Shown here: positions 9,319 to 61,228 of the stretch, piece after piece | Layout of the letters: each line of letters opens with the position of its first letter | How positions within the stretch are numbered: position 1 is the first letter of the stretch | Assembly: GCA_019058315.1 (NCBI GenBank) | Contig: JAHPZH010000001.1 | Coordinates: 71,938 to 135,937 of the forward strand | Direction: 5' to 3' | DNA from: Candidatus Helarchaeota archaeon | GTDB taxonomy: Archaea > Asgardarchaeota > Lokiarchaeia > Helarchaeales > RDOG01 | DNA length: 64,000 nt | Translations under genes and position numbers: made by a program | Notes under the pieces: model-generated | What the model was told of the DNA's origin: nothing | What the model saw: the letters and a program-made list of their open reading frames with translations, nothing else | The model's database searches: none

Positions 9319-9411
9319 TTTTTAACACCTTAAAAAATGAAAGAAAGTGAAAATTTAAAAATATCAGAAAAAATTATTATATATATAAGAAAAAGTTATG
9401 AAGTCGTTAAA

Positions 9412-10319: not shown

Positions 10320-11411
10320 TTATTTTATATATTTCATTATCTCTTCTTCGTCTAAATCAAAGCTAAGCCCCGGTCCATCTGGAATTTTAACATAACCCTC
10401 TGAATCTAACTGATAGGAACCCGCTTTACTAAAAAGTATGAAATCTGGATAAAATCCATATTCAAAATATGGGCAATTTGGAAGACTTCCAATTATTTGT
10501 AGATTGGCTGCTTGAACTAACCCTGTTCCAAATACATGAGGTATACACAGTTTTCCATATGCTTCAGCAAGACTCCCAATTTTTTTTACGATTGATATTC
10601 CTCCCGACCTTGTTGCATCGGGTTGGATAATGTCATATGCTCCTTTTTGTAATAATGTTTGAAATTCATGAACTCCAAAATTATTTTCTCCTCCTGCTAT
10701 AGAAATGTCCACTTGAGACCTTAATTCGGTTAAGTTATCAATTTCATCACTAAAGACCGGTTCTTCTAACCATTTAAAATGATCATGACTTTCTAATATT
10801 CGAGCTAATTTTAGGGTAGTTTTTAAGTCATAACCCGAGTTTACATCAACCATAACTTCTAATTCACTTGGAGAAAAGTTATCAGTTAATGCATTTATAA
10901 CCACTTTGTCTTTATCTAAACCTTGTCCAAGTCTTATTTTAATAGCTTTAAAATTTCGTTCATCTAATGCAGTTTTTGTCATTTTTACTGTCTCATCAGG
11001 CTTCATCCAATAGGGCATGGAAGCATAAGCCTTTATTTTTCTTTGATATGTTCCAATTATTTGATGAACTGGTTTTCCTAAATCCTTACCTATAATATCC
11101 CATAATGCACAATTAACTAAAGAAATACCTATTGGATTTCCAATCAAGATTCGATAAGTATAATTGATTAAATCTTGAGTTATCGCCTCAATATCATAAG
11201 GATCACGTTTTAGAATTAATTTTTTCCATCGTCGAATGAAAATTGCACAAGCTTCATCTGAATTCACAAAATGTCCAGCTGCAACTCCTTCTATACCTTC
11301 ATCAGTTTTTAATCTTAATAAAGTACCTGTGATTTTGAATTTAGGCATTGCACCTATTTTAATTTTTACTGGTAATTCAAACCAATTTGACTCAATTTCT
11401 TTAATCTGCAT
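10320..11411 (-). CDS. enolase-superfamily enzyme (mandelate racemase/muconate lactonizing enzyme family)
   Basis: 363 aa with a capping domain and barrel. Metal ligand contexts are DVNSGY, LEEP and IAGGE, plus D..QPD. Confidence 0.8.
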   Translation of the reverse strand: MQIKEIESNWFELPVKIKIGAMPKFKITGTLLRLKTDEGIEGVAAGHFVNSDEACAIFIRRWKKLILKRDPYDIEAITQDLINYTYRILIGNPIGISLVNCALWDIIGKDLGKPVHQIIGTYQRKIKAYASMPYWMKPDETVKMTKTALDERNFKAIKIRLGQGLDKDKVVINALTDNFSPSELEVMVDVNSGYDLKTTLKLARILESHDHFKWLEEPVFSDEIDNLTELRSQVDISIAGGENNFGVHEFQTLLQKGAYDIIQPDATRSGGISIVKKIGSLAEAYGKLCIPHVFGTGLVQAANLQIIGSLPNCPYFEYGFYPDFILFSKAGSYQLDSEGYVKIPDGPGLSFDLDEEEIMKYIK

Positions 11412-38560: not shown

Positions 38561-40063
38561 TTGAAAAGTTATGACGTAATTATCATTCATCCACCAAGAG
38601 TAATGGAACCAGATTATGGTAAGCACACAAAATTTGTTCGAAGTACATATATTTTTATTCCAATGGGTGTTTTTGCAATTGCTGACTTTCTTGAGAGGGA
38701 AGGGTTTGGAGTTAAAATTATTAATTATCCTTTAGAGCAATATTTAAACCGGAAATGGTCTTTGGCTGAGTTTCTTAAAAAAATTAATTTTAAGGTATGT
38801 GGAATAGATTTACATTGGATCCACAACGCACATGGAGTCATTGAAACTGCAAAGATTGTGAAAGAGGTAAATCCTAATGCTAAAGTGGTTTTCGGAGGTT
38901 TTAGCGCTTCTTATTATCATGATCAATTATTGAAATACTATAAAAATATTGATGCAGTAATTAGAGGAGAAGGTGAAATTCCTCTTTTGAATTACGTTCG
39001 TAATACTAATAAAAATCATGATTTAGATTCTGTGGCTAATTTATCTTATCGAAATGCCTCTAATCACATCAAAATTAATCCTATTTCTTATGTAGCAAAA
39101 TCATTGAATGAATTCAATTTTACTAATGTAAATCTCTTAGAGAATGCAAAAAAATATTTCGAGTATAGTAGAAGAATTATGGGAATTTCTCTTAATCTAC
39201 CCATAGCTAGAGGATGTCCCTTCAATTGTCCTTGTTGTGCAGGAGGGCAAAGGGCTCAACAAAAATTATCGGGACGGGATAAGGTAATTTTCAGAAACCC
39301 AGAAAAAGTAATAGAAGATATCCACAATATCTTGGATAAATATAACATCCCTAGCGTTTTTTTTGGACATGGTACCTATCCCACAAATTTGAAATATTGG
39401 AAAAATCTTTTTAAATTGATTCGTAAGGAAAAGTTCGATATTAGCGGTGATTTGGAAATATGGAGGCTGCCATATCCCAAAGATATGTGGGAATTGTTTT
39501 ATAAGACCTTCACTCGTAGACATTCATCGATTAGTATTTCTCCTCGAACTATGTCTACAAATGTACATAATAAGGTTGCAAAAATCTGTGATCCTACTTT
39601 TCAATTTCCTAAAAATCAAATTCAAGATTTAATAAAAAATGCAAATTTATTCAGAATGACTCTAAGAATATGGTTAACAATAGGTTATCCATTTCAAACC
39701 CGTAGAGATGTTCTTAAAGATTATTTATTTACAATAAAATGTCTCATAAAATATGGAAGTTCCAATTTCAAACCAATTACTATTATGAGTGAACCATATT
39801 ATATTTTTCCTGGTTCACCTGCTCATGAGGATCCCAAAAGTTTTGGAATCAAATTAGATTATAATTCCTTTCCACAAATAGTTGATGCATTTAAAAGAAT
39901 AAAAGTAACATATACAAATAGAGTTTTAAACTATGAAACTAAGTATTTTTCGAAAACCACAAATCTTATAATAAATGATCTATTATTTTTAACTGCTGCA
40001 CCCATGTTTTTAACGAGAGGTGCGAAATATCCCAAAGAAAAAGATGTAACTATTTTTAAGTAA
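38561..40063 (+). CDS. B12-binding-domain radical SAM enzyme (class B)
   Basis: TTG start. The N-terminal Rossmann-like YDVIIIHPP...GVFAIADFLEREGFGVKIIN is typical of the class B cobalamin domain. The CxxxCxxC is ARGCPFNCPCC. Confidence 0.7.
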   Translation: MKSYDVIIIHPPRVMEPDYGKHTKFVRSTYIFIPMGVFAIADFLEREGFGVKIINYPLEQYLNRKWSLAEFLKKINFKVCGIDLHWIHNAHGVIETAKIVKEVNPNAKVVFGGFSASYYHDQLLKYYKNIDAVIRGEGEIPLLNYVRNTNKNHDLDSVANLSYRNASNHIKINPISYVAKSLNEFNFTNVNLLENAKKYFEYSRRIMGISLNLPIARGCPFNCPCCAGGQRAQQKLSGRDKVIFRNPEKVIEDIHNILDKYNIPSVFFGHGTYPTNLKYWKNLFKLIRKEKFDISGDLEIWRLPYPKDMWELFYKTFTRRHSSISISPRTMSTNVHNKVAKICDPTFQFPKNQIQDLIKNANLFRMTLRIWLTIGYPFQTRRDVLKDYLFTIKCLIKYGSSNFKPITIMSEPYYIFPGSPAHEDPKSFGIKLDYNSFPQIVDAFKRIKVTYTNRVLNYETKYFSKTTNLIINDLLFLTAAPMFLTRGAKYPKEKDVTIFK

Positions 40064-40202
40064 AATTTTTTCGTCAATTTTAATCTTTTTTGAATGATTA
40101 ACGATTTTATTGATAAGTTTTTTAATAATTTCAATTCATTTTAGAAATTTTTATATATTATTTGCTTGATTGTAATTAAAGTAAAAATTTTGGAGATAAC
40201 TC

Positions 40203-40778
40203 TTGAAAGACAATAGCTTTTCTAAATTATTTGTATTAAGCTTCATAATATTTATTTTTAGTTCTTTAATGCTCCCAATTATCAAATATTTTATTGATAT
40301 CATCGCTGAAATGTTATTTGTATTCCAATATAAATTCTTTTATCAATTTCATATCAACTTTAATTTATTATTATTCGAAGAAATTCTTCCCTATTTGATT
40401 TTAGCTTGGTTAATTAGTGAAATGTTCATTTGTCCTTGTATAATTAAAGCAAGACTCTCCAAGAGATTCAAAAATTTTATTTTAAGTTATATAATGAAGA
40501 AAAAATTTGACCATTTCGAATTTAATTCAATAAAATATGAAAATAAAAGGAAGCAATCCAAAGAGAAGAAAACTAGTGATGAAATATATGTTCATTTTAC
40601 TCCTAAATTAGGAAAAAATGAATCCCATTTTAATCAAGAGAGAATAAAATATAATAATAATCCTCCTGATTATAATATTTCAAATTTTTTAAGAAAATTT
40701 TCAAATATCTTTAATATTTTTTTATTATTTTTTTCAAATTTTTTTTCAAACCTATGTTCACTATGGAGGGGGAAATAA
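40203..40778 (+). CDS. hypothetical membrane protein (low complexity; coding status uncertain)
   Basis: 191-aa TTG-initiated ORF, Phe/Ile/Asn-rich, with 2-3 hydrophobic segments. It could be an AT-rich artefact. Confidence 0.3.
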   Translation: MKDNSFSKLFVLSFIIFIFSSLMLPIIKYFIDIIAEMLFVFQYKFFYQFHINFNLLLFEEILPYLILAWLISEMFICPCIIKARLSKRFKNFILSYIMKKKFDHFEFNSIKYENKRKQSKEKKTSDEIYVHFTPKLGKNESHFNQERIKYNNNPPDYNISNFLRKFSNIFNIFLLFFSNFFSNLCSLWRGK

Positions 40779-40901
40779 TCGTTTGAACTCATTTTTTAAC
40801 TATACTTTAAATGGAAATAATTTCTATTTTTTGGTTTCTTTACTATTAAACTTTCAAATATCTATTTATTTTAAAAAATTAACAAAAGAAGGTGAGAAAA
40901 A

Positions 40902-42305
40902 TTGGATTGGAAACCCGAAATAAATGAATTATATGAAAAAGTAACAAGTCAAGTACCAGAAGCATTTCGAGATGCTGTAAAACCAATGCTTAGGCAAGCT
41001 GCAGAGAAAGCTGCGATACTCCGTAATTCTGCCTATGTAAGCGAAGATGATTTACTGTCATCTCTATTTGATATTACACCAGAGGCATTTAAACCAACGG
41101 TTGTATCAGATTTGGAAAATTTAGGAATTGCTACAGGAAAATATATTGAACTATCAGAGATAAGAAAAGACTATTCACGCACTTGGGATGAGATTAGTGG
41201 AGCATTTCTACCAGGGGTGTATCATTTTACTATGTTTTTAACTGATAGATGTAATCAGAAATGTATGCATTGTGCTGCTGAAAATCCTATACATCGTCCC
41301 GAACTCTCAACTGAACAATGGATTCAAATTATAGAAAATGTTGAACAGACCCTTAGAAAACGTGGTAGAAGGGGTTGCTATATATGGTTTGGTGGTGATC
41401 CAACTTTACGTAAAGATTTGAAAGATCTTATAAAATACTGTGGGGAAAAAGGTTATTACCAAGCAGTTTCAACTAATGGAATGCTATTTACAGAAGAACT
41501 TGCAAAACTTTGTGCAGAAGTTAAAATGTCACATGTTTTTATTAGCTTTGATAGTGTTTATCCTGAAAGAGCTGCAAAGATAAGAGGAGTTCCAAAAGCT
41601 TACGAGGCAGCAGAAAAAGCTATTAAATTAGCACTGAAATATGGCCATTTTGTAATTTGTACAGCAACAGTACAAAAAACCAATTTTGACGAACTTGATG
41701 AAATAAAACAACTCATGGAGAGTTGGGGTGTAATCCCTTATTTCAGAGCCGTTATAAAACAGAGAAGTGCTGCAGTAAACTGGGATGAGATTGGACTAAG
41801 TCATGAGGAATATAAAAAGTTCTATGAATTTAAATATAAACATGTTGTTGAGGCTATTAGAAAAGGTGAGGGTTCATCTCTCAATAAATTCTATACTTAT
41901 GATATGGTTCCTTTTATGGAATGTCCAATAAATATAAAAGAACTTACTGCACTTGAATGGGGAGTTGGTTGTCAAGCATGTCGGTCAGTTTCGGGTATAG
42001 ATATAAATGGAGATTTTTTTCCATGTGATTATCCTTCAGAATTAACTCTTGGAAACGTATTAAAACAACCCTTCGATGAAATAATGGAATCTCAGCTTTT
42101 TAAGGATATAAGAGATAGAAAAAGAATCGGCAAATGCGCATCATGTCACCATCTCGAATTGTGTGGAGGAGGTTGTCGAGTACATGCAGAATGTGAGACT
42201 GGAGATTTTTTTGAATCATTTCCGTATTGTTGGCATGAAATGGATCATAAACATGAAGAAATTGCTGAAGTTCCTAAAGAAAAAGAGATACCCGCAAGTA
42301 AATAA
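40902..42305 (+). CDS. radical SAM/SPASM enzyme with an N-terminal PCP_red-like module (paralog 1; NirJ/AhbC/AhbD-like core)
   Basis: TTG start preceded by GGTGAG. CxxxCxxC is DRCNQKCMHC. The C-terminal auxiliary-cluster Cys pattern is GVGCQAC...FPCDY...GKCASCHHLELCGGGCRVHAEC. The N-terminal 80 aa is shared with three neighbouring proteins. Confidence 0.8.
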   Translation: MDWKPEINELYEKVTSQVPEAFRDAVKPMLRQAAEKAAILRNSAYVSEDDLLSSLFDITPEAFKPTVVSDLENLGIATGKYIELSEIRKDYSRTWDEISGAFLPGVYHFTMFLTDRCNQKCMHCAAENPIHRPELSTEQWIQIIENVEQTLRKRGRRGCYIWFGGDPTLRKDLKDLIKYCGEKGYYQAVSTNGMLFTEELAKLCAEVKMSHVFISFDSVYPERAAKIRGVPKAYEAAEKAIKLALKYGHFVICTATVQKTNFDELDEIKQLMESWGVIPYFRAVIKQRSAAVNWDEIGLSHEEYKKFYEFKYKHVVEAIRKGEGSSLNKFYTYDMVPFMECPINIKELTALEWGVGCQACRSVSGIDINGDFFPCDYPSELTLGNVLKQPFDEIMESQLFKDIRDRKRIGKCASCHHLELCGGGCRVHAECETGDFFESFPYCWHEMDHKHEEIAEVPKEKEIPASK

Positions 42306-42329
42306 TTTAAATGAATATGGTGTAAATTC

Positions 42330-43742
42330 ATGGAATGGGAAGAAGAAACCAAAGATTTATACAAAAAAATAACTGAAAATATTCCTGAAGGCTTTCGGAA
42401 CTCAGTAAAACCCTTAATTTACGAAGCAGCAGAGAAAAGATGCGTAGAACGTAATGGATCCTATGTTAACGAAGCAGATTTAATAACTGCAATTTTTGAT
42501 ATAACTCCAGAAGCATTTAAAGCTATGATGACTGATGATCTAAAATCCTTGGGGATTAACGTTGAAAGATACATTGAACTTAAAGATATTAGAGATCGAT
42601 ATAGACTTTCATGGCAAAAGCTAGAAGATGCTTTTCATCCGGGAAATGTACACTTTGCAATGTATATTACAGAAAAGTGTAATCAAAAATGTTTGCATTG
42701 TGCCGCAGATGAAAAAGTTGAACGCCCTGAGTTAACAACAGAACAATGGTGTGAAATAATAGAGAATATTGAGACAGGATTGAGAAAAAATGGTCGACGT
42801 GCTTGTTTTATATGGTTTGGAGGAGAGCCCACATTGCGGGAAGACATCCATGATATCATGAAGTTCTGTGGTGATAAAGGTTACTATCATGCAATAATAA
42901 CCAATGGTGTGAGGTTTGCAGAAGAATTTGCTAAATCTTGCTCTGATAATGGAATGAGCCACGTTTTTGTGAGTTTCGACAGTGCAGATCCTATAAAAAA
43001 CGATAAAATACGCGGAATGCCCGGTGGAAAAACCTTAGAATCGGCAAAGAAAGCAATCGATAATTGCTTGAAGTATGGTTTATTCGTTTGCTCATCAATA
43101 ACCGTAATGAAACATAATATTGATGAACTTGAAGATCTAAAAGCAATATCCGAGAGTTGGGGTTCACAACCATATTTTAGAGCAGTGGTTAAACAAAATA
43201 GAGCTGCTGATTATTGGGATGAAATTGGTTTAAGTCAAGAGGACTATAAAAAATTATATGAATTTAAGTATAAACATGCCATAGAAGCTATAAGGGATGG
43301 AAAGGCAGGAACTCTACCAGCATACGAAATATATGAAATGACACCCTTTATGGAATGTCCTAAGGACGACAAGGAAATGACTGGAATTGAGTGGGGTGTT
43401 GGATGTCTCGCTTGCAGAACTATGATGGGCATTGGGGTTGATGGAACTATATATCCTTGTGGTTATCCTACTAAACTGACACTAGGTAATGCATTGAAAG
43501 ATAAATTTGAAGATGTTCTTAATACACAAATTTATAAAGATATTCGAGATAGGAAGCGCACTGGTAAATGTGGAGAATGTCACCACCTTAAATATTGCGG
43601 TGGAGGATGTAGAGTGCATACAGAATGCGAAACTGGGGACTTCTTCGCTTCTTTCCCTTACTGCTGGCATGAAATGGATCATGAACATGAAAAACTAGAA
43701 GGTTTTGTTAAGGAAAAAGAATTAGAAATTATAAAGAAATAA
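42330..43742 (+). CDS. radical SAM/SPASM enzyme with an N-terminal PCP_red-like module (paralog 2)
   Basis: EKCNQKCLHC, GVGCLAC...YPCGY...GKCGECHHLKYCGGGCRVHTEC. Roughly 55-65% identical by eye to 40902-42305 over its full length. Confidence 0.8.
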   Translation: MEWEEETKDLYKKITENIPEGFRNSVKPLIYEAAEKRCVERNGSYVNEADLITAIFDITPEAFKAMMTDDLKSLGINVERYIELKDIRDRYRLSWQKLEDAFHPGNVHFAMYITEKCNQKCLHCAADEKVERPELTTEQWCEIIENIETGLRKNGRRACFIWFGGEPTLREDIHDIMKFCGDKGYYHAIITNGVRFAEEFAKSCSDNGMSHVFVSFDSADPIKNDKIRGMPGGKTLESAKKAIDNCLKYGLFVCSSITVMKHNIDELEDLKAISESWGSQPYFRAVVKQNRAADYWDEIGLSQEDYKKLYEFKYKHAIEAIRDGKAGTLPAYEIYEMTPFMECPKDDKEMTGIEWGVGCLACRTMMGIGVDGTIYPCGYPTKLTLGNALKDKFEDVLNTQIYKDIRDRKRTGKCGECHHLKYCGGGCRVHTECETGDFFASFPYCWHEMDHEHEKLEGFVKEKELEIIKK

Positions 43743-43752
43743 AAATCAAAAA

Positions 43753-44166
43753 ATGGAGTTGATGAAAATTATAAACACGAAAGAAGAATGGGAATCTTAT
43801 TTAGATAAATTCATAGAGGGTTATAATATTTTACCTGAGTTACCTGCAATAATTCAATCCATAGCCCCATTGGTTTTTAATTATGTAATAACTGATCGCC
43901 CAGAAATGAGCTATTGGTTTTTAATAGAAAAAGACAAAATAAGTTGGGGATTGGGGCAATATTCTGGAACTAATCATCCAACTATCATCCATAAGACTGA
44001 TTTTGAGACCATGAAAAAGGTTAATTCAGGTGAGACTGATCCTATTCAAGCAACAATGTTGGGGACTTATAATGTCGATGGTGATGTTTCTAAACTCATG
44101 GCATGTGCATCCTTACTTCCGCTTGGAGTAAAAGCACATGCTTATGCTCTAGAAAAAATAAAATAA
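43753..44166 (+). CDS. SCP2 (sterol/lipid carrier) domain protein, UbiT-like architecture
   Basis: 137 aa. The C-terminal pattern DPIQATMLGTYNVDGDVSKLMACASLLPL resembles the SCP2 signature (A---G-l-i-GD---l--l--l). Confidence 0.55.
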   Translation: MELMKIINTKEEWESYLDKFIEGYNILPELPAIIQSIAPLVFNYVITDRPEMSYWFLIEKDKISWGLGQYSGTNHPTIIHKTDFETMKKVNSGETDPIQATMLGTYNVDGDVSKLMACASLLPLGVKAHAYALEKIK

Positions 44167-44178
44167 TGGAGTAATAAA

Positions 44179-45387
44179 ATGAATTTTAAATATAATACAG
44201 ATATAGAAAAGATGCATTATGATATTATAAAGGCTGCTAAACTCGCTGATGCTCCATACAATGAAGATATAATTCAAAGAATTCTTAAAGCTTATAAGGA
44301 TTTTTTTAGAGGTTCGGTTGTTACCTTTGTAACTTCAACTAAGCCAAAGAACAAACGCACTCTGTCAATCCGTTATGTGGAAATAGATGTTAAACATGAT
44401 CCTTATGAAATTGCGATATCTAATAATCTACTTAAACAAGAAAAACATTTAATCCACCATTTATTAACCGAAATTAAAAGTAATTATCCCATTATGGGGT
44501 ATGGAGTGGATGCTGACGTAAATTATGGTGTAACGAAAATTTGGAGTTTCTTTCAAATTCCACAACCCTTAGAAAAAGCATTTAAAACACCTGCAGTTCC
44601 TGAAAGTATCCAGAAATTTACAGATTATTTTAAAAAATATGACCTTGATGTTTTTCATCTATTTGCTTTAGATTTCCGTAATAAAACTGCTAATGTATAT
44701 TTTATGGTGAAGGATCCAAAAGCAAACCCAGCTGATAAGGTTGCGAACATGATTTCAGACTTAGGTTTAAAAGTTCCATCACAAGAGATACTTGAACATT
44801 GCTCCAAAGCATTAACAATTTATCTTACATTTGCGTGGGAATCCTCCATGGTTGATAGAATATGTTTCGGAACTGCCGTTGATGATCCTAGCTTGATCCC
44901 AACACATTTAGACCCATTATTAAAAAAGTATTCACAAAATGCACCATTTCAATCAAAAAATCGCCTATTTATTTACAGTATAACACCATCACGTTCAGGT
45001 GACTATATCAAAATCGAAAATGATTATATGGGGGAGATGATTAATTTAATGAAATCTGGAATTCAAGCTGAAGTTTGGATGGATGACTTAAAAAAACAAA
45101 GAGAAAATGTTCAGCCAAAAACTGTTGAACTAAGTGGGGTTAAGTGGGTAGATGGAGTTTCAATATTATTTGAAAAAATTACAGATGATATTCCCGAGAC
45201 GTTCCGTTCATTTGTAAAACCTATGCTGCTTGAAACTGCCGAAAAAAAAAGTCAAATTAGAAATGGAAATGGAATTACTGAATCGGATCTTATAACTGCA
45301 CTATTAGAAATAACACCAGAACCATTCAAACCTGACGCAATTAATAATTTGAAAAAATTAGGAGTAGATATGCAAAAATATATTTAA
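44179..45387 (+). CDS. ABBA-fold aromatic prenyltransferase (NphB/CloQ family) fused to a C-terminal PCP_red-like module
   Basis: By-eye alignment to remembered NphB blocks: GSVVTFVTSTKP-KNKRTLSIRY vs GGSVVVFSMASGRHSTELDFSI; YGVDADVNYGVTKIWSFF vs FAIDGEVTGGFKKTYAFF; LFALDFRNKTANVYF vs MTSMDYKKRQVNLYF; VDRICFGTAVDDPSLIP vs IDRLCFAVISNDPTLVP. No TM segments. The last 80 aa form the shared module. Confidence 0.65.
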   Translation: MNFKYNTDIEKMHYDIIKAAKLADAPYNEDIIQRILKAYKDFFRGSVVTFVTSTKPKNKRTLSIRYVEIDVKHDPYEIAISNNLLKQEKHLIHHLLTEIKSNYPIMGYGVDADVNYGVTKIWSFFQIPQPLEKAFKTPAVPESIQKFTDYFKKYDLDVFHLFALDFRNKTANVYFMVKDPKANPADKVANMISDLGLKVPSQEILEHCSKALTIYLTFAWESSMVDRICFGTAVDDPSLIPTHLDPLLKKYSQNAPFQSKNRLFIYSITPSRSGDYIKIENDYMGEMINLMKSGIQAEVWMDDLKKQRENVQPKTVELSGVKWVDGVSILFEKITDDIPETFRSFVKPMLLETAEKKSQIRNGNGITESDLITALLEITPEPFKPDAINNLKKLGVDMQKYI

Positions 45388-45426
45388 TTCTTAATTTTTT
45401 GATCACAAAATAAAAATTAAAAGGAA

Positions 45427-46836
45427 GTGATTGCAATTCAATTTACTGTAGCAACAAATTGGGATTTTAAACTAATAGATGAATTAGCTAAATACCCTGT
45501 GAAAGATATTTATGGAGTTGCAAAATTTTCGATAGTTGGTCATGGTAGACCCTCATTTTTATTAAATGAAGTTTCAGAAGAAGAAATTGCGGAGTATATT
45601 CGAAAAATTCATGAGAAAAAAATGAAATTTTCTTATTTATTAAATGCACCTTGTATGAATAACATGGAATATGATGCTGAATATCATAAAAAGCTGTTAA
45701 ATTACATTCAATGGATTTGTGATATTGGATCAGATAATGTAATAGTTACAACACCTTTTTTAATCAGTCTTATTAAAGAACAATTTCCAAAATTGAAAAT
45801 TCGGGTTTCAACTATAGCCCACGTTAATAGTGTGAATCGAGCAAAATTCTATGAAGCATTGGGTGCAGAAGAAATCACTCCTGATGTAATGATTAATCGC
45901 GATTTTAAGACTTTGATAAAAATTAAAAAAGCAGTGAAATGTGACATTGTTCTGCTTTTAACTGATGGTTGTTTATATCAATGTCCCTTTAGATATTATC
46001 ATTATAATATCCTTGGGCATTCTTCCCAATCTTCCCACATACTTGGAGGTAATTATGTAGATTTTTGCATATTAAATTGTAGTGCTATTAAATTCTCTAA
46101 TCCTACCGAAGTAATTAAAGCAAGATGGGTTCGCCCTGAAGATTTATCCCATTATGAAGCTATCGGGATTGATAAATTTAAAATTGCTGGACGCCGTATG
46201 CCTACTAAATGGATTCTTCGAGCAGTGAAAGCATTTTCTTCTCGAAAATATAATGGGAATCTTATAGATATAATCCAAGGTTTTTCTATGTCCGTTGGGG
46301 TTGAGAAAGATCCAAATGCTAAATTTATCGACACGATTGATAAAGAGCCTAAAGCAAAACTTATAATTGATAATACTAAATTGGATGGTTTTATTGATTT
46401 TTTTAAAAAACAAGATTGTATATCAATGTGTGATGACTGCAAATATTGTGAAAATTGGGCAAAAAAAGCTGTAATTCTTGATAAAGAGCAAGCTCCTAGG
46501 TATGTCGAATCATTAGAAGGTTATATTAAAGATATCACTACGAGCCGAGAATTTGGTATTGAATCGGTTAAACCAGAAAAGAAGAAGAAAAAAGGCTTAG
46601 AATGGAATCCTGAAACTGAAAAAATTTTTGAGGATTTAATTCAACTATCTCCCCAACAATTCCAATCAATGGCAAAGATGGTTATTTCTTCAATGTCAGA
46701 AGAAAATGCAAAAAAAAGAGATTCTAAGGTAGTAGAAAACCAAGATATTGTAAAAGCATTTATTGCTGGAACTCCTGAACCTTTTCAAGCAGATATGAGA
46801 GAAGGACTTAAAAAATATGGTCTATTAAACGAATGA
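45427..46836 (+). CDS. peptidase-U32-family protein (UbiU/UbiV/RlhA superfamily) fused to a C-terminal PCP_red-like module
   Basis: GTG start. The N-terminal FTVATNWDFKLIDEL...YGV...GHGRP and FSYLLNAPCMNN...NRDF...LLLTDGCLYQCPF pattern matches a U32 subfamily, with Cys ligand candidates. The last 77 aa form the shared module. Confidence 0.65.
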   Translation: MIAIQFTVATNWDFKLIDELAKYPVKDIYGVAKFSIVGHGRPSFLLNEVSEEEIAEYIRKIHEKKMKFSYLLNAPCMNNMEYDAEYHKKLLNYIQWICDIGSDNVIVTTPFLISLIKEQFPKLKIRVSTIAHVNSVNRAKFYEALGAEEITPDVMINRDFKTLIKIKKAVKCDIVLLLTDGCLYQCPFRYYHYNILGHSSQSSHILGGNYVDFCILNCSAIKFSNPTEVIKARWVRPEDLSHYEAIGIDKFKIAGRRMPTKWILRAVKAFSSRKYNGNLIDIIQGFSMSVGVEKDPNAKFIDTIDKEPKAKLIIDNTKLDGFIDFFKKQDCISMCDDCKYCENWAKKAVILDKEQAPRYVESLEGYIKDITTSREFGIESVKPEKKKKKGLEWNPETEKIFEDLIQLSPQQFQSMAKMVISSMSEENAKKRDSKVVENQDIVKAFIAGTPEPFQADMREGLKKYGLLNE

Positions 46837-46877
46837 TAGAAAGGTAATTTTTAATTTTTTTTTATAGTGACGTATAA

Positions 46878-47501
46878 TTGAAAACTGTTATAATAACCTC
46901 ACCACACCCCGATGATGCTGTATTAGGTTGTGGTGGAACAATCATCAAATCCATCCAAGAAAATACACAAGTTTATGTCATTTATCTAACAGATGGAAGG
47001 GCTTGTTATACTTATCTTAAAATTAAATCCAATTTAACTCCATCAGATGTTGCAGCAGGAAGAAAGAAAGAAGCAATAGAAAGTTGTAGAATTTTAGGAG
47101 TTCCAGAATCAAATCTAAAATTTCTTGAAATTTGGGATAGAGAACTTGGGAAACCAAAAAATTTTAAAAAAGCACTAGCTGCTGTAAAAGAATTAGTGAG
47201 AAAAACTAATCCTTATAGAATCTTTGGTCCAGTTTTTAAAAATAGACATATTGATCATCAAGCAACCCATGATATTATATTAGAAGTTCTTAAAGATTGT
47301 CCTGATATTGAATTTTATATGTACGGTCTTCAGAAATCTATTGGAAAATCAGATTTAAAAATTGATATAACTAGTGTTAGAGAACAAAGAGCAAAAGCTA
47401 TGTTTATTCACGAAATTGAGCTTGTTTATGAAAGAGATATTTATAAAATTTTAGCAAAACAAACAAAGGAAAGATTTAGATTATATAGAAGAAGTAATTA
47501 A
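46878..47501 (+). CDS. PIG-L/LmbE family N-acetylglucosaminyl deacetylase
   Basis: TTG start. SPHPDDAVLGCGGT zinc-binding motif plus a downstream HIDHQATH. Confidence 0.75.
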   Translation: MKTVIITSPHPDDAVLGCGGTIIKSIQENTQVYVIYLTDGRACYTYLKIKSNLTPSDVAAGRKKEAIESCRILGVPESNLKFLEIWDRELGKPKNFKKALAAVKELVRKTNPYRIFGPVFKNRHIDHQATHDIILEVLKDCPDIEFYMYGLQKSIGKSDLKIDITSVREQRAKAMFIHEIELVYERDIYKILAKQTKERFRLYRRSN

Positions 47502-48252: not shown

Positions 48253-48945
48253 TTAAAGAACCGCGTTTCCAATTAAGTTTCCAATCTCAAAATTTTTCTG
48301 AATTTCATGTCCAATCTTTTTATACTTTTCTATTTTCGATTCTGGAACTTTTAAAATTCGTAAAAATGGCTCAATTTCATTTATTTTTGCGAAATATATT
48401 AAATCATTATTTTCTCTTACTTCCTTTATTAAATCTATTTCCTGTAGATTAAAAAGAAAATCTTGGACTATTTGAGATTTTAATTTAGACTTTTTTGCTA
48501 ATATGTTCAAATTGATACCAGGCTCTAATAAAATATATTCCAAAATCCTAAAAATCTTGTCATCTCTAAGTAAAAGAATATTATTATCTAATTCTGAATT
48601 TATTTTGAAATCAAAATAAGTTATTTTATTTTTAAATCTCCTACTTCTTATATATTCAAATTTCTCAAGCATCCTTAAGTGCCAAGCTGTCTGATGAGGC
48701 GATAACTCTAGATTTCTTTGAATATCTCTTAAATGAGCGCCTGGGCTGTTGAAAACGTATTCATAAATTTTGTTCCTTGTATTGTTATTTAAGACGGAAT
48801 CTTTTGTTATTTTAGAATCTTCAAATAAAACTTTTTTTGAAAATAATCCGTAAATCGCTTGATTAATTTCAACATTCGAATATTTTAAGTTTAAAACGGA
48901 AATAGTGTATAATTTTTCAACATTTAAAGGACTTACTTTAACCAT
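48253..48945 (-). CDS. double winged-helix (ArsR/TrmB-like) protein, copy 1; the true N-terminus may lie upstream
   Basis: Two wHTH-like units (IYEYVFNSPGAHLRDIQRNLELSPHQTAWHLRMLEKFEYI and ILEYILLEPGINLNILAKKSKLKSQIVQDFLFNLQEIDLI). It is a paralog of 52831-53580 and lies directly downstream of a giant surface protein gene. Confidence 0.65.
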   Translation of the reverse strand: MVKVSPLNVEKLYTISVLNLKYSNVEINQAIYGLFSKKVLFEDSKITKDSVLNNNTRNKIYEYVFNSPGAHLRDIQRNLELSPHQTAWHLRMLEKFEYIRSRRFKNKITYFDFKINSELDNNILLLRDDKIFRILEYILLEPGINLNILAKKSKLKSQIVQDFLFNLQEIDLIKEVRENNDLIYFAKINEIEPFLRILKVPESKIEKYKKIGHEIQKNFEIGNLIGNAVL

Positions 48946-49044: not shown

Positions 49045-52000
49045 TTATTTGATATTCTCAAGATATCTTAGAAATTCCTCTCTTTCTTTTGGAGATAAAC
49101 TAGCTAATTCCTTTAGAATTGTTGCTTTTTCAGCGTTATCCGGAATGTTTAATTTTAAAATTCTTATTACTTCATCTTCAGATAAGAAGGAAATGTCTCG
49201 CTTTAAATCAGTTAAATATTTTTCCTTTTTGAGTCTATTTAATAAGAATTCTAAATTAGCAGAGCTATCTTTTTTATGTTCCATTCGAGGAGCTAAAGAA
49301 TCTATTTTTTTCTTCTTCTTTGCTAATTTCTGCTTCGATATTTTTTGCTGAGTTGAGGTTTGTCTTTTTCTTATTACAATAACACCCACAGTGCCAGCTG
49401 AGGCTCCTACTATTCCAATTATTATAATTATAATAGTTATTGTATTATTAGGTGGTGGTATCCAAGGAATCCTAAAAGGACCTTTTATTTTTATTTTTAT
49501 AATTAATGATTCACCTGTATTATTTGCCTCATCAACTGGAATTATTTCGTACGTATATTTTTTCTTTGAAGCGTTGAGATCCATATAATACGTTAAAGAT
49601 GTTATTCCCAAATATTCTCCGTCTCTTCGAATAATATAATTTACAGAATTATTATCTGCCGATGGAAACCATGAAATTGTGATATTACCTGATTGGATTA
49701 TAACGCTTTTATATGTTGGTTTTGTGGGAGGAGTATCATCGAATGTTAAAATTATTGTCGTTATATTTTGATTCCCGAATGTATCATTAGCTCTTATCCA
49801 AAATTGAACTACTTGATCACTATTGAAACTTGATAAATCAATATCGAAAGAACCAACAAATGAATTTGTCCAAGTTAACTGTGTAACATTTGCCCTCCAT
49901 TCCACAGTTGAAATATCTAGATTATCATCAGTAATAGTCAGATATATAAAGGCTGGCTTATTTAAGACTGTTTCATTCTGAGGAGAATCTAAGACAATTG
50001 AAGGGTTAATACTATCTGTATCCCATGTTGCAATATCCAAAACCCTCGCCGATTCACCAGTTATTGTATGTGTGTCATTATAGATAACCATAACAGTATC
50101 TCCAACTTGAACCAAGATTATATCTGAAGGATCGTTACTTGAACTCGTACTAAATGTGAAATTCCCTGTAAATATGCCAGTAGTTGGTCCAGTCTCACCT
50201 AACTGAACTATTATGCCAGAATTATCACTAGAACTATTTACATTGACATCAACATAATCATTTCCACCCGTTGTATCTAGATCTGAATCTATTACTGTTA
50301 TCATAGCAACTGTTCCTGTTCCGTAATATGCAGTTGAATCCAAAGTTATGGATCCTGTTACTGTTTCGATCCAGGTTGCTGTATCTACCATTTGTGCTGA
50401 AGCACCAGTAACATCATATAAGTCATTATAAATCACCATAATTATGTCCCCATCTTGAGCACGAATAATATCCAAAAGATCACTACTAAAGTTACTGCTG
50501 AATGTGAAATTTCCCATAAATATACCTGTCGTTGAACCAATTTCAGTTAATTGAACATATATTCCACCCACGTCACTTGAACTATTAACAAGCACTGTTG
50601 CATTATCAGGCGAAGCCGATATGTCTAGATCTGAATCATTTAACATTATATTCGCAACAGCATCTGTTCCATAGTAAGTTGCTGAATCTAAATTTACGAT
50701 ACCAGTAACTGTCTCAATCCAAATGGCTGTATCATTTAAGCTATCATGAATTACCATGATAGTATCACCATCTTGAGCCCAAATAATATCTAAAGGATCG
50801 TTGCTTGAAGTAGTGCTAAATGTAAAAGTTCCGCTAAATATAGCTGAATTGACTGCTGTTTCAAATAATTGAACCATTATACCTGGATTATCACTTGTGC
50901 TATTTACAGTTACGTTTACATTTTCAATAATTGTAGAATTCAAATTATAACTACTATCAATAACCGTTATAGTTGCTATTGCTGCTGTTCCATAGTAGTA
51001 TGTTGAATCAAGATCTAAAGTTATAGTCACTGTATCTATCCAGATTGCAGTATCTTTTGGTTGTGCGAAAGCTCCAGTAATTGTATGTGAATCATTATAC
51101 ATTGACATAATAGTATCACCATCTTGAGCCCAGATTATATCTGCAGCATCATTACTTGAGGTATTGTTGAATGTAAAACTTCCAATAAAAATGCCTGTAG
51201 TAGCTCCAGTTTCATCTAAACGAACAACAATTCCAGTAGGATCGGAGGTACTATTTACATTCACATCTACATAATCCATTGCTCCCGTTACATCCAGATC
51301 TGAGTCGACAACTGTTATAGTAGCTATAGCCCCAGATCCAACATAAGTAGGAGAATCTAGATCTATGGTTCCTGTAACTGTTGCAATCCAAATTGCACTA
51401 TCTAATGTTTGGGCTGGCATACCTGTTACAGTGTGAGAATCATTATACCTCGTAGTTATTATATCACCATCTAGAGCTAAAATTATATCTAAAGGGTCAT
51501 TACTTGCGGTAGTGCTAAATGTGAAAGTCCCCATAAATACTCCTGTTGTTGGACCTGTTTCAATTAATTGGACATTTATACCAACAATATCGCTTGTACT
51601 GTAAACATCTACGCCTACGCTATCAGGCGCCCCCGTTATATCTAGATCCGAGTCGCTTACTGCAATAACAGCAATTGCTGCTGTTCCATAATATTGAACC
51701 TCATCTAAAATTATGGTTCCAGTCACCGTCTCAACCCAAGTCGCGGTATCTGTAACATTATCATGAATAGCCATAATAGTGTCTCCGTCTTGAGCCCAGA
51801 TTATATCCGCAGGATCGTTGCTTACTATAGTACTAAATGTAAAAAAGCCTGTAAAATAACTTGTATTAACTCCAGTTTCAGTTAATTGAACAGAAATACC
51901 CGTGATATCAGTTGAACTATTAACACTAACATTTACGATATCAAGAATTGTAGGATTTAAATTATAACTAGTATCAAAAACCGTTATATTAGCGATTGCC

Positions 52001-52527
52001 GAGACTCCATAATAAGTAGTAGCATCTAATTCTATAGTTTTACTTGCTGATTCTAACCATGTTGCACTATCGCTTAGACTAACATTGTCATGTGCAACAA
52101 TAGTATCACCATTTTGAACTAGAATAATACCCAATGTATAATTACTTTCAACTGTGCTAAATGTAAAATTCCCTATGAATATACTAGTATTATATCCAGT
52201 TTCTATTAAATCAATTATGATACCAATAGAATCACTAGAACTATTTACGAATATCCACGCAGTATCATTGGCTCCCTCATCAAAATTATATAATTCCTCA
52301 TTTAGGGTTATGGTAGCAACTGCACTCGTTCCATAATAAACTTCAGCATCTAAATTAAGTGTTCCCCTAATTTCCATGGTATAACTATCATTTTCATAAG
52401 GCATAGAAAGTATTGAACTATTTAAATTACTTGAAGAGATCAAATTTGCAAAACTTATGAAAAATATTACTGTTATTGTAAAAGTCAAAGCTATCTTAAG
52501 TCTTTTATTTTTCATTTTACTCACCAA
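49045..52527 (-). CDS. giant (1160 aa) repeat surface protein with an Fn3-like domain, a TM segment and a conserved cytoplasmic tail
   Basis: Signal/anchor N-terminus, seven ~105-115-aa repeats, a membrane-proximal region shared with 53637-56432, TM (IIIIIIGIVGASAGTVGVIVI), and a ~130-aa cytoplasmic tail. Confidence 0.85.
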   Translation of the reverse strand: MVSKMKNKRLKIALTFTITVIFFISFANLISSSNLNSSILSMPYENDSYTMEIRGTLNLDAEVYYGTSAVATITLNEELYNFDEGANDTAWIFVNSSSDSIGIIIDLIETGYNTSIFIGNFTFSTVESNYTLGIILVQNGDTIVAHDNVSLSDSATWLESASKTIELDATTYYGVSAIANITVFDTSYNLNPTILDIVNVSVNSSTDITGISVQLTETGVNTSYFTGFFTFSTIVSNDPADIIWAQDGDTIMAIHDNVTDTATWVETVTGTIILDEVQYYGTAAIAVIAVSDSDLDITGAPDSVGVDVYSTSDIVGINVQLIETGPTTGVFMGTFTFSTTASNDPLDIILALDGDIITTRYNDSHTVTGMPAQTLDSAIWIATVTGTIDLDSPTYVGSGAIATITVVDSDLDVTGAMDYVDVNVNSTSDPTGIVVRLDETGATTGIFIGSFTFNNTSSNDAADIIWAQDGDTIMSMYNDSHTITGAFAQPKDTAIWIDTVTITLDLDSTYYYGTAAIATITVIDSSYNLNSTIIENVNVTVNSTSDNPGIMVQLFETAVNSAIFSGTFTFSTTSSNDPLDIIWAQDGDTIMVIHDSLNDTAIWIETVTGIVNLDSATYYGTDAVANIMLNDSDLDISASPDNATVLVNSSSDVGGIYVQLTEIGSTTGIFMGNFTFSSNFSSDLLDIIRAQDGDIIMVIYNDLYDVTGASAQMVDTATWIETVTGSITLDSTAYYGTGTVAMITVIDSDLDTTGGNDYVDVNVNSSSDNSGIIVQLGETGPTTGIFTGNFTFSTSSSNDPSDIILVQVGDTVMVIYNDTHTITGESARVLDIATWDTDSINPSIVLDSPQNETVLNKPAFIYLTITDDNLDISTVEWRANVTQLTWTNSFVGSFDIDLSSFNSDQVVQFWIRANDTFGNQNITTIILTFDDTPPTKPTYKSVIIQSGNITISWFPSADNNSVNYIIRRDGEYLGITSLTYYMDLNASKKKYTYEIIPVDEANNTGESLIIKIKIKGPFRIPWIPPPNNTITIIIIIIGIVGASAGTVGVIVIRKRQTSTQQKISKQKLAKKKKKIDSLAPRMEHKKDSSANLEFLLNRLKKEKYLTDLKRDISFLSEDEVIRILKLNIPDNAEKATILKELASLSPKEREEFLRYLENIK
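50037..52380 (-). repeat. seven tandem ~105-115-aa coding repeats (beta-sandwich-like)
   Basis: The unit A-W-ETVTG-I-LDS--YYGT-AIA-ITV-DSDLD-TG--D-V-VNVNS-SD--GI-VQL-ETG-TTGIF-G-FTFST--SND--DII-AQDGDTIM--YND recurs seven times. Confidence 0.8.
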
Positions 52528-52830: not shown

Positions 52831-53580
52831 TTATTTAGTAATTAATCCCCAATCTCCCTTTGAAATTATGTTATTGTTATTTATACATTTTAGAGTTTCT
52901 ATTTCTCTGTACTTTTTTATTTTTACTTCTGGAACTTTTAATATTTTTAATATTGGCTCAATTTTTTCCATTTTTCCAAAATATCTTAGAGTATCTTTTT
53001 CTAATGCTCCAAATACTAAATCTAGCGATTGTAGATTAAAAGTAATATTCTCAACAACTTCCGCCTTTATTTTAGCGTTCTTTGCTAATGTATTTAAATC
53101 AATACCAGGCTCTAATAAAATATTTTTTAAAACTCTCAAAAAACTTACATCCCTAAGCATAAAAATGGATTTAAATAATTCAGGATTAATTTTAAAATTA
53201 AAATAGGTTATTTTATTGCTAATTTTATTTTTTCTAATAAAACCAAATTCTTCAAGCATTTCTAAATGCCAAATAGTTTGATGAATTGATAAATCCAGAG
53301 TTCTTTGAATTTCTCTAAAATGAGAGCCAGGGTTACTGGAAATATATTCAAAAATTTTATTCCTTATTTGATTTTTGAGGGCTGTATCTTTTGTAATTTT
53401 AGATCCTTTAACTAATATTCTTTTTGAAAATAGTTGGTAAATGGCTTGACTAATTTCACTATTATCATATCTTAAATTCAAAATTGATATAGTATATAAT
53501 CTTTCAATATTTATTGGACCTATTTTCAATAATTTTTTAGCCAATTTTAAAACTGATCTCTCGATTGGTGAAAGGTTCAA
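52831..53580 (-). CDS. double winged-helix (ArsR/TrmB-like) protein, copy 2
   Basis: 249 aa, collinear with 48253-48945 (IFEYISSNPGSHFREIQRTLDLSIHQTIWHLEMLEEFGFI; LKNILLEPGIDLNTLAKNAKIKAEVV). It lies directly downstream of the giant gene 53637-56432. Confidence 0.65.
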   Translation of the reverse strand: MNLSPIERSVLKLAKKLLKIGPINIERLYTISILNLRYDNSEISQAIYQLFSKRILVKGSKITKDTALKNQIRNKIFEYISSNPGSHFREIQRTLDLSIHQTIWHLEMLEEFGFIRKNKISNKITYFNFKINPELFKSIFMLRDVSFLRVLKNILLEPGIDLNTLAKNAKIKAEVVENITFNLQSLDLVFGALEKDTLRYFGKMEKIEPILKILKVPEVKIKKYREIETLKCINNNNIISKGDWGLITK

Positions 53581-60665: not shown

Positions 60666-60667
60666 AA

Positions 60668-61228
60668 ATGCAACTTGGTATTTATTTTAATCAAACTCGG
60701 TGTACTGGTTGTAATGCTTGTCGAATCGCCTGTAAAGACTGGAATGACATTGAAGCTGGACCGGAGAACTGGATGAAAGTATTATATCATGAAGAGGGAA
60801 AACTTCCTAATATTTATGTCTGCTACATGATTAGACCTTGTTTTCACTGCATTGATCCTGTCTGTATTCCTGCATGTCCTATTAATGCAATAACAAAAAG
60901 AAAAGAAGATGGTATCGTAATCGTAGATAGTGATAAATGTATTGGTAAGGATGAGTGTGGCAATAAATGTTTAAAAGCATGTCCATATGATGCTCCACAA
61001 TTTGGAGCTGAAAAAAACTCAAAGATGAGAAAATGTACGTTTTGTATAGATCGAATAAAGGATAACAAGAAACCAGAATGTATTGATGCTTGCCCAACCA
61101 GAGCGCTCGATTCCGGACCTTTAAATGAATTAAAAACAAAGTATGGCAATATTAATGAAACTATAGGATTTAAATATTCAGAAAGATGCAAACCAGCTAT
61201 TATTTTTAAGCCCAAAATCAAGAAATGA
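60668..61228 (+). CDS. 4Fe-4S ferredoxin-type electron-transfer subunit (DmsB-like)
   Basis: MQLGIYFNQTRCTGCNACRIACKDWN plus further CxxCxxCxxxCP groups. GGAGG lies about 10 nt upstream of the ATG at 60668. The ORF is open from 60626 but overlaps the upstream gene. Confidence 0.8.
   Translation: MQLGIYFNQTRCTGCNACRIACKDWNDIEAGPENWMKVLYHEEGKLPNIYVCYMIRPCFHCIDPVCIPACPINAITKRKEDGIVIVDSDKCIGKDECGNKCLKACPYDAPQFGAEKNSKMRKCTFCIDRIKDNKKPECIDACPTRALDSGPLNELKTKYGNINETIGFKYSERCKPAIIFKPKIKK

Follow-up and report, generated by a model that had tools for sequence, protein, structure and literature searches.

The 64-kb window analyzed here (contig JAHPZH010000001.1 of a Candidatus Helarchaeota archaeon; about 30% G+C) contains a run of plus-strand genes for three radical S-adenosylmethionine (SAM) enzymes, a small SCP2-fold protein, a prenyltransferase of the ABBA fold family, a divergent U32-family protein and an LmbE-family deacetylase. 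Four of the encoded enzymes share a small domain, here called X. An earlier reading of this DNA (the original prediction) had proposed that the genes direct the oxygen-independent assembly of a prenylated, lipid-carried aromatic or tetrapyrrole-derived cofactor. Open reading frames (ORFs) lie at every coordinate it gave, and all of its family assignments hold in Pfam and NCBIfam searches. The features of the locus are as follows.

38561–40063, + strand: class B (B12-binding) radical SAM enzyme, Ta0216-like, without an X domain (Pfam/NCBIfam and motif)
40203–40778, + strand: doubtful 191-amino-acid ORF in an 838-nt gap (ORF list; no Pfam match)
40902–42305, + strand: enzyme 1, X domain (residues 1–85, nt 40902–41156) followed by radical SAM and SPASM domains
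42330–43742, + strand: enzyme 2, X domain (residues 1–85, nt 42330–42584) followed by radical SAM and SPASM domains
43753–44166, + strand: SCP2-fold small protein, putative carrier of hydrophobic intermediates (Pfam, family profile)
44179–45387, + strand: ABBA (PTase_Orf2) prenyltransferase (residues 1–~305) followed by X (residues 320–402, nt 45136–45384)
45427–46836, + strand: divergent U32 TIM-barrel protein, putatively Fe-S-binding (residues 1–~387), followed by X (residues 390–469, nt 46594–46833)
46878–47501, + strand: LmbE/PIG-L-family deacetylase, 41 nt from the U32 gene (PF02585 and motifs)

The gaps among the six genes from 40902 to 47501 are exactly the 24, 10, 12, 39 and 41 nt originally described, and the B12-binding radical SAM gene lies 838 nt upstream on the same strand. 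Shine-Dalgarno-like motifs (AGGTGA, GGTG, GGAG, AGGA) occur 5–12 nt 5′ of the genes for both SPASM enzymes, the prenyltransferase and the U32 protein. Going by spacing and synteny, the arrangement is operon-like. A sigma-70 promoter and terminator scan gave fewer matches than shuffled sequence and was uninformative, the bacterial model being the wrong one for an archaeon; tRNA and Rfam scans of the whole window found nothing.

Gene neighborhoods of relatives of the prenyltransferase and U32 genes were compared in 22 non-redundant loci, with domains mapped by BLASTP and jackhmmer. The five families (radical SAM-SPASM, B12-binding radical SAM, SCP2, ABBA and U32) are found together at no fewer than 15 independent loci in both archaea and bacteria, which excludes chance adjacency. 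Without LmbE, the set is found again in Loki-, Odin-, Heimdall-, Thor- and Hermodarchaeota; Thermoplasmata and several anaerobic bacteria have it too. Sequence identity of the cluster is about 70% among the Loki, Thor, Odin, Heimdall, Hel, Hermod and Hod lineages, and gene order, whose conservation among Asgard genomes the original prediction had named as a check, is kept. The recurrent core is ABBA plus radical SAM-SPASM, usually with U32, SCP2 and the B12-binding radical SAM enzyme, and all-against-all clustering of the ORFs in these loci showed that little else recurs. We are highly confident that these components make up a conserved biosynthetic cluster. The claim that no characterized pathway has this gene set also stands: full-text literature searches found no description of it, and nothing relevant on DUF2621, a Pfam family that X weakly resembles.

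In Loki (L021) and Odin (L025) clusters, the order is B12-binding radical SAM, slot ORF (see below), two X-radical SAM-SPASM genes, a second B12-binding radical SAM, X-ABBA, SCP2 and U32-X. Relative to the window, this is one extra B12-binding radical SAM gene and an exchange of the prenyltransferase and SCP2 genes, the order being otherwise the same. The Heimdall cluster (L022) runs U32-X, two X-radical SAM-SPASM genes, B12-binding radical SAM, X-ABBA and SCP2. The larger Thor cluster (L023) also contains a radical SAM-SPASM~SCP2 fusion and a U32-X-SCP2 fusion, together with a U32 paralog that lacks X and a GlcD-like flavoprotein whose Fe-S partner has a CCG domain. Further versions occur on a complete Thermoplasmata chromosome (L001) and in an uncultured archaeon (L006), and bacterial versions on 26–88-kb contigs of metagenome-assembled genomes (MAGs) from Pseudobacteroides, Clostridia, Thermoanaerobaculia and Bacillota (L012–L014, L019, L020).

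Two short MAG contigs labeled ‘Candidatus Deferrimicrobium’ (L008, L011; 2.9–5 kb) and the protein P0128 represent archaeal-type cluster genes, with a U32 protein 70% identical to that of the window. Such contigs may be mis-binned Asgard or other archaeal DNA, so only the long contigs should be counted as evidence of bacterial occurrence. The added redox genes (L023:13254–15817; L002:7261–9836), a GlcD-like FAD_binding_4 flavoprotein and a TfrB/GlpC/HdrD-like protein with Fer4_8 and CCG domains, come after an extra X-radical SAM-SPASM and SCP2 pair, and may, as a module, link the pathway to an electron acceptor.

The most distinctive feature of the locus, missed in the original account of its gene set, is the X domain common to four of its enzymes. 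It comprises about 80 amino acids and is N-terminal in the two SPASM enzymes and C-terminal in the prenyltransferase and U32 protein. These four copies, the only ones in the window, align without gaps and share 13 invariant positions; 38 copies were found in the collected loci. Pfam returned sub-threshold or borderline DUF2621 matches and weak PCP_red matches, the latter below the Pfam cut-off (E=0.022; 2.2e-6 in P0189 and 1.6e-5 in P0255). An AlphaFold2 model of X has four helices and very high confidence (predicted local distance difference test score 92, predicted template modeling score 0.81), and neither sequence searches nor Foldseek found a significant match in the PDB. Matches to histone folds recurred at E=0.3–1 with root-mean-square deviations of 7–9 Å, and no kinship is claimed. 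X appears to be uncharacterized and, judging from the model, structurally unprecedented relative to the PDB.

An exhaustive profile search of 1.84 billion proteins placed X in only 213 representative clusters; it was used in place of a word-indexed search, which gave only short stand-alone proteins and missed known fusions. Of six multi-repeat matches in proteins of 850–1700 amino acids, the five that were checked are TPR/STAND NTPases, which are false positives. Among the 43 true matches in mid-sized and large proteins, X is fused to PTase_Orf2 in 14, to U32 in 14, to radical SAM in seven (six with SPASM) and to SCP2 in two; LuxC, an HpaB-family protein, a class-I SAM methyltransferase and a thioredoxin-like [2Fe-2S] ferredoxin occur once each. 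One chain (P0205, 949 amino acids) joins a LuxC acyl-CoA reductase, X and radical SAM-SPASM; another (P0189, 1104 amino acids) has two X and two SCP2-like domains.

Placement of X in the loci follows a pattern. It is always N-terminal on radical SAM-SPASM enzymes, C-terminal on U32 proteins, and never on the B12-binding radical SAM enzyme. ABBA enzymes carry it at the C-terminus in the window and in L001, L002, L006 and L008; the remaining Asgard clusters all have it at the N-terminus. X is duplicated on one U32 protein (L015) and stands alone beside the ABBA gene in L020. The radical SAM-SPASM~SCP2 fusions lack X, and the U32-X-SCP2 fusions carry both domains. Because no Ser, Cys or Lys is invariant in X, it would be a binding or adaptor module rather than a covalent carrier.

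The two SPASM enzymes are paralogs of about 60% identity. Both have Pfam Radical_SAM and SPASM matches above the cut-offs (76 and 40 bits in enzyme 1, which also has a DUF2621-like match at residues 3–83), and both carry CX3CX2C at residue 117, as CNQKC(M/L)HC. The full set of SPASM cysteines is present in each, spanning residues 357–443 in enzyme 1 (C357/360/375 and C412x2C415x5C421x3C425). Enzyme 1 has orthologs of 75–82% identity in L002, L006 and L016, and the tandem pair is kept in L002, L016, L021, L022, L023 and L025. The best NCBIfam matches of both enzymes are AhbD, AhbC and NirJ, at 100–145 bits versus cut-offs of 500–650; identity with any of the three was rejected, the scores being three- to five-fold under the curated cut-offs. 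The nearest solved structures are PqqE, SkfB, SuiB, GDGT-MAS and BlsE, with enzyme 1 matching GDGT-MAS (7TOL) at E=5.7e-7 and Tes at 62 bits. On these scores, the relatives give no functional assignment past the superfamily level.

The first gene of the locus is assigned as a class B (cobalamin) radical SAM enzyme. Its PF02310 B12-binding match scores 61.5 bits against a cut-off of 32.1; the Radical_SAM match, at 28.8 bits, is slightly under the cut-off of 29.5, but CX3CX2C is present at residue 219 nonetheless. The best NCBIfam match is TIGR04190 (the Ta0216 family) at 249 bits, below the equivalog cut-off of 500. The gene is the first of the conserved Loki/Odin form of the cluster, with full-length orthologs at the same position in L016 (60% identity), L021 and L025.

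The SCP2 assignment of the window protein is marginal by itself (22.3 bits versus a Pfam cut-off of 21.3), but 12 of the 14 members of its family match PF02036 (best E=2.3e-7), and the three top PDB matches of the family profile are all SCP2 proteins. The protein is conserved over its whole length, as a folded protein would be, and SCP2 is present in all reasonably complete archaeal clusters, either stand-alone or fused to U32-X or radical SAM-SPASM. A specific relationship to UbiT was rejected (hhalign versus the E. coli protein, E=0.12).

The product of 44179–45387 falls inside the ABBA fold family, as predicted. It matches PF11468 at E=1.8e-63 (215 bits versus a cut-off of 22) over profile positions 2–284 of 287, and its PDB matches are solved prenyltransferase barrels: AmbP3 (1e-49), AmbP1 (1e-40), EpzP (2e-39), NphB (9e-32) and CloQ (2e-18), the closest two being cyanobacterial. 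All members of the subfamily have K120, N172, Y174, R227, Y276, K278 and Y283, and AmbP3 has the same residues at the aligned positions; the conserved basic and tyrosine residues are those that we take, by analogy with NphB, to line the diphosphate site. The protein is accordingly placed in the ABBA/PTase_Orf2 family as a putative aromatic prenyltransferase. The expectation that such an enzyme would be exceptional in archaea was not borne out, this ABBA clade being widespread in Asgard archaea. An apparent rarity of the family (30 clusters in the word-indexed database) was dismissed as an index artefact; divergent N-terminal-X forms are common in Asgard clusters.

The window enzyme shares 54–61% identity with enzymes of Thermoplasmata, uncultured-archaeon and bacterial type, against just 39–42% with the N-terminal-X enzymes of Asgard clusters L015–L017. 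Compared with Asgard loci L015–L017 and L021–L025, the window also lacks the second (TIGR04072-like) B12-binding radical SAM gene and has SCP2 ahead of the prenyltransferase. This gene order, the missing gene, the C-terminal X and the identity pattern together suggest xenologous replacement of segment 43753–45387.

Membership of 45427–46836 in the U32 family, also predicted, is confirmed by both sequence profile and structure comparison. PF01136 matches at 48.5 bits (cut-off 22.4) over residues 88–150 only; the family profile has 5D88 (Mk0906), the single solved U32 protein, as its sole PDB sequence match (4.9e-9), and Foldseek with the AlphaFold2 model ranks 5D88 first (2.8e-9, versus ~1e-5 for generic TIM barrels). 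Cysteines in the pattern C76...C182x3C186...C218 are conserved across 20 U32-like paralogs, with one exception at C76; C76 aligns with C39 of UbiV, in a segment where the model is poor. A second motif, C331x3C335x2C338x2C341 (CX3CX2CX2C), is confined to X-bearing forms. More than 120 homologs share 63–88% identity with the window protein, and they are named as Promethearchaeota or as Loki-, Thor-, Odin-, Heimdall-, Hel-, Hermod- or Hodarchaeota. On these comparisons, the protein and its relatives are assigned to a distinct, distant U32 subfamily, and by analogy with UbiU/V the window protein is a putative O2-independent hydroxylase.

Two ORFs of the locus lie outside the conserved system. A protein of ~200–243 amino acids with no Pfam match occupies the slot between the Ta0216-like B12-binding radical SAM gene and enzyme 1 in Loki and Odin clusters, and lies upstream of U32 in the Heimdall cluster; its members (L021:3042–3644, L016:3573–4286, L025:3281–4012 and L022:8906–9601) form one family at jackhmmer E≤1e-50, with an N-terminal hydrophobic segment in at least the L016 and L021 proteins. 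The AT-rich 191-amino-acid ORF at 40203–40778 occupies the slot position in the window. BLASTP against the L021 protein gave E=0.42 and the slot-family jackhmmer profile missed the window ORF; with no detectable relation to the slot protein, it was rejected as a conserved gene or a precursor. The LmbE protein is a sound family member (PF02585, 92 bits; PHPDD and HxxH motifs, the latter as HIDH), with a BshB1 match of 69 bits versus a cut-off of 182.5. Its proposed place in the pathway is not borne out: BLASTP and jackhmmer found no homolog in any of the 22 related loci (numbered within L001–L026). It is a neighbor, possibly co-transcribed, and not a conserved member of the system.

Clues to the chemistry come from the genes that accompany the core in individual loci. 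A type-1 isopentenyl diphosphate (IPP) isomerase of the NUDIX family adjoins the ABBA gene in L012 and L020 (169 and 165 bits versus a cut-off of 127), and a homologous ORF follows ABBA in L019; an IPP isomerase linked to the cluster is a dedicated supply of dimethylallyl diphosphate (DMAPP). L024 has a 3-hydroxy-3-methylglutaryl (HMG)-CoA-synthase-like gene between its prenyltransferase and U32 genes. L012 also has a bifunctional 3-deoxy-D-arabino-heptulosonate 7-phosphate (DAHP) synthase/chorismate mutase (429 bits versus a cut-off of 279) beside three U32-X genes. The product of chorismate mutase is prephenate, which is also a precursor of 4-hydroxyphenylpyruvate, the substrate of CloQ. Prephenate is the oxygen donor in hydroxylation by UbiU/V, and the same role for it has been proposed across U32 proteins (PMC10990095). 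The U32-X-SCP2 fusions of L006, L016, L023 and L024 each come after a second U32 paralog that lacks X, and the fusions of X to a methyltransferase and an HpaB-family protein could bring in further enzyme classes able to tailor an aromatic ring.

The genes, their conservation, the shared X domain, the cofactor motifs and the accessory genes are direct observations; what the pathway acts on, in which order, what it makes and what X does are inferred from the chemistry of the families and from gene context. In the route that we propose, the soluble ABBA enzyme would transfer a prenyl group from DMAPP, or from a longer prenyl diphosphate, to a shikimate-derived aromatic acceptor, and the SCP2 protein would hold the hydrophobic intermediate. 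Ring hydroxylation would fall to the U32 protein, a putative Fe-S enzyme, which would take oxygen from prephenate as UbiU/V do; the two radical SAM-SPASM paralogs could carry out radical oxidative decarboxylation, C-C bond formation or cyclization; and the B12-binding radical SAM enzyme could add a methyl group to carbon. X would probably bring the enzymes to a common partner, either the SCP2-bound substrate or each other, and so let them work as an assembly.

We give an even chance to the proposal that the cluster makes a prenylated aromatic lipid without O2. That the product is a quinone or quinol is a narrower claim, and a doubtful one, though it deserves serious consideration. More speculative again, and rather unlikely as stated, is a metabolon in which X recruits prenyltransferase, U32 hydroxylase, radical SAM enzymes and methyltransferase to a shared carrier-bound substrate; the alternatives for X are X-X co-assembly and recognition of a common substrate handle.

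Several observations weigh against the prenylated aromatic lipid. The activities and the product are predicted from family membership. The closest characterized SPASM relatives are mostly peptide-modifying. The U32 cysteine spacing is unlike the published CX6CX15CX3/4C or the UbiV-type CXnCX12CX3C; hhalign gave only a distant match to E. coli UbiU (E=0.0076 over 91 columns) and none to UbiV, on which basis UbiU/UbiV orthology was rejected; and the window encodes one U32 protein where UbiU/V would be two. In vitro hydroxylation by a U32 protein has itself yet to be demonstrated (PMC10990095). No UbiA, polyprenyl synthase, or quinone methyltransferase or O-methyltransferase was found among the window ORFs of at least 150 amino acids that were scanned. 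ABBA enzymes usually belong to secondary metabolism and use short prenyl donors, with which the need for a lipid carrier seems smaller. X occurs with no SCP2 within reach in bacterial loci L004, L012, L019 and L020, so it is not solely an SCP2-docking module. Finally, the Loki and Odin lineages in which the cluster persists are considered to be fermenters, and in the Asgard literature we found no report of a quinone from cultured Asgard archaea.

A first alternative is that the cluster tailors membrane isoprenoid lipids, of archaeol/glycerol dibiphytanyl glycerol tetraether type or other polyprenyl lipids, rather than an aromatic compound. SCP2, a lipid-binding fold, would extract the lipid; the SPASM enzymes would form C-C bonds or rings like Tes/GDGT-MAS and Grs; the B12-binding radical SAM enzymes would methylate the chains; U32 would hydroxylate; and ABBA would prenylate a non-classical acceptor. 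Consistent with this, GDGT-MAS and Tes are among the relatives of enzyme 1, as given above, and the second Asgard B12-binding radical SAM enzyme has as its nearest family TIGR04072 (‘lipid biosynthesis B12-binding/radical SAM protein’; 291 bits). Relatedly, a CDP-alcohol phosphatidyltransferase gene adjoins L021, L002 has a PlsC-type acyltransferase, and P0205 fuses an acyl-CoA reductase to X-radical SAM-SPASM. However, the lipid-family scores are all under curated cut-offs, and the cluster is found in bacteria without archaeal lipids, alongside IPP isomerase and DAHP synthase/chorismate mutase. Moreover, PTase_Orf2 members of known function, to which the match is strong and full-length, all take aromatic acceptors, and the characterized U32-dependent hydroxylations are all on aromatic or heteroaromatic rings. 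Lipid tailoring seems unlikely.

Still less probable is a system resembling those for ribosomally synthesized and post-translationally modified peptides (RiPPs), in which X would recognize a peptide or small protein made on the ribosome, as the RiPP recognition element (RRE) or PqqD domain does, and the peptide would undergo SPASM cross-linking, ABBA prenylation, and then hydroxylation and methylation. One small domain on several unrelated tailoring enzymes and also stand-alone is the RRE pattern, most characterized SPASM relatives (PqqE, SkfB, SuiB, MftC) are peptide maturases, and in L004, a minimal bacterial locus, the X-radical SAM-SPASM and ABBA genes have an ABC transporter, a trypsin-like protease and small ORFs as neighbors. 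Yet gaps of 10–41 nt are too short for a precursor ORF inside the operon, and the 838-nt gap shares nothing with the L016 and L021 gaps beyond the position of the unrelated slot protein, no conserved small ORF having been found there. X is all-helical and matches no solved structure, hence no winged-helix RRE/PqqD; the SCP2 protein is conserved over its full length like a folded protein, not a precursor; and SCP2, U32, IPP isomerase and chorismate mutase are foreign to RiPP clusters.

A tetrapyrrole cofactor, with SPASM enzymes remodeling side chains and a PCP_red-like X binding the macrocycle like the C-terminal domain of BchB in dark-operative protochlorophyllide oxidoreductase, is very improbable, since what favors it (AhbD, AhbC and NirJ as best-matching families, the weak PCP_red matches of X, and a HemN-like radical SAM gene in L011 and L012) is offset by the scores far under the AhbC/AhbD/NirJ cut-offs, by PCP_red matches below the Pfam cut-off with no Foldseek match to solved structures, by the failure of tetrapyrrole biosynthesis genes to recur in the clusters, and by an aromatic prenyltransferase, SCP2, IPP isomerase and chorismate mutase that it leaves unexplained.

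The original proposal of a prenylated, lipid-carried aromatic or tetrapyrrole-derived product is therefore partly upheld in its aromatic half, with the product itself predicted, and finds almost no support in its tetrapyrrole half. The comparison with UbiT/UbiU/UbiV plus a soluble prenyltransferase that accompanied it holds as an analogy, supported by the U32-X-SCP2 fusions, chorismate mutase, IPP isomerase, the HMG-CoA-synthase-like gene and the X fusions, but not as orthology.

The components belong to known superfamilies and none reaches an equivalog cut-off; the closest logic, as far as family matches indicate, is that of UbiT/U/V combined with an ABBA natural-product cluster. Like UbiT/UbiU/UbiV, the cluster has a U32 protein with four conserved cysteines, possible [4Fe-4S] ligands, together with SCP2 in anaerobic hosts (PMC6747719; PMC10990095). 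Several loci pair U32 paralogs with SCP2 fused to one of them, and a ubiT-ubiU fusion is known in Zymomonas (PMC6747719). In L012, a cluster-linked chorismate mutase would provide the oxygen donor that UbiU/V use. On the other hand, the window U32 protein is single, not orthologous to UbiU/V, and has another cysteine spacing plus the extra CX3CX2CX2C motif; the enzymes bear X; a soluble ABBA enzyme stands in for membrane UbiA; and radical SAM-SPASM and B12-binding radical SAM enzymes stand in for UbiD/X, UbiE and UbiG.

The full-length PF11468 match is shared with ABBA natural-product clusters (NphB/naphterpin, CloQ/clorobiocin, EpzP/PpzP phenazines, AmbP1/AmbP3 hapalindoles), and the window enzyme retains the family-invariant Lys, Asn, Tyr and Arg of AmbP3. 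Some variants of the cluster have IPP isomerase or HMG-CoA-synthase-like genes, much as mevalonate-pathway genes adjoin nphB. Unlike the natural-product clusters, which are sporadic and secondary-metabolic, this one is conserved across a whole archaeal lineage in a housekeeping-like manner; its hosts are strict anaerobes, mostly archaea; its prenyltransferase is fused to X; and its partner enzymes are O2-independent Fe-S and radical enzymes, not oxygenases.

The resemblance to RiPP clusters with PqqD-like RREs lies in a small domain that is found on several tailoring enzymes, N-terminal on radical SAM-SPASM, and also stand-alone. It ends at the four-helix X, which has no detected similarity to RREs, and at the precursor peptide, for which no gene was found; SCP2, U32 and the precursor-supply genes point to a small-molecule lipid substrate instead. 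AhbC, AhbD and NirJ share the radical SAM plus SPASM architecture and are the best-scoring named families for both paralogs, but the enzymes here carry X as an additional N-terminal domain and are not encoded among tetrapyrrole genes.

Elsewhere in the window, 2009–2956 (+) encodes a small GTPase of the Gtr1/RagA-Arf family, of eukaryotic-signature type, which fits the Asgard origin of the DNA. A bacterial-type LysR regulator gene (9337–10317, +) adjoins a mandelate racemase/muconate-lactonizing-enzyme family gene (10320–11411, −), a pair that may have been acquired horizontally. Downstream of the cluster, 48253–48945 (−), 49045–52527 (−), 52831–53580 (−) and 53637–56432 (−) form two regulator and giant-ORF pairs: two HTH_HVO_0163-type regulators, each next to a large ORF (1160 and 931 amino acids) without a significant Pfam domain. 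A molybdopterin oxidoreductase catalytic subunit (Molybdop_Fe4S4, Molybdopterin and Molydop_binding domains; 58422–61228, +) is followed by a 200-amino-acid ORF.

Published work on Asgard archaea predicts enzymes that depend on quinones (electron-transfer-flavoprotein:quinone oxidoreductase, NDH-2, Nuo and cytochrome bd), and metabolic models assume menaquinone; the Asgard literature that we examined describes neither a quinone nor a biosynthetic route to one. The cluster is a concrete, testable candidate for the source of a quinone-type molecule in Asgard archaea, and if its product is not a quinone it would still be another conserved Asgard lipid. Should the proposed pathway prove true, prephenate-dependent U32 hydroxylation would extend beyond Proteobacteria and RNA modification, and ABBA prenyltransferases would take a place in conserved archaeal metabolism. 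The fusion pattern of X can be used to find members of the pathway in other genomes.

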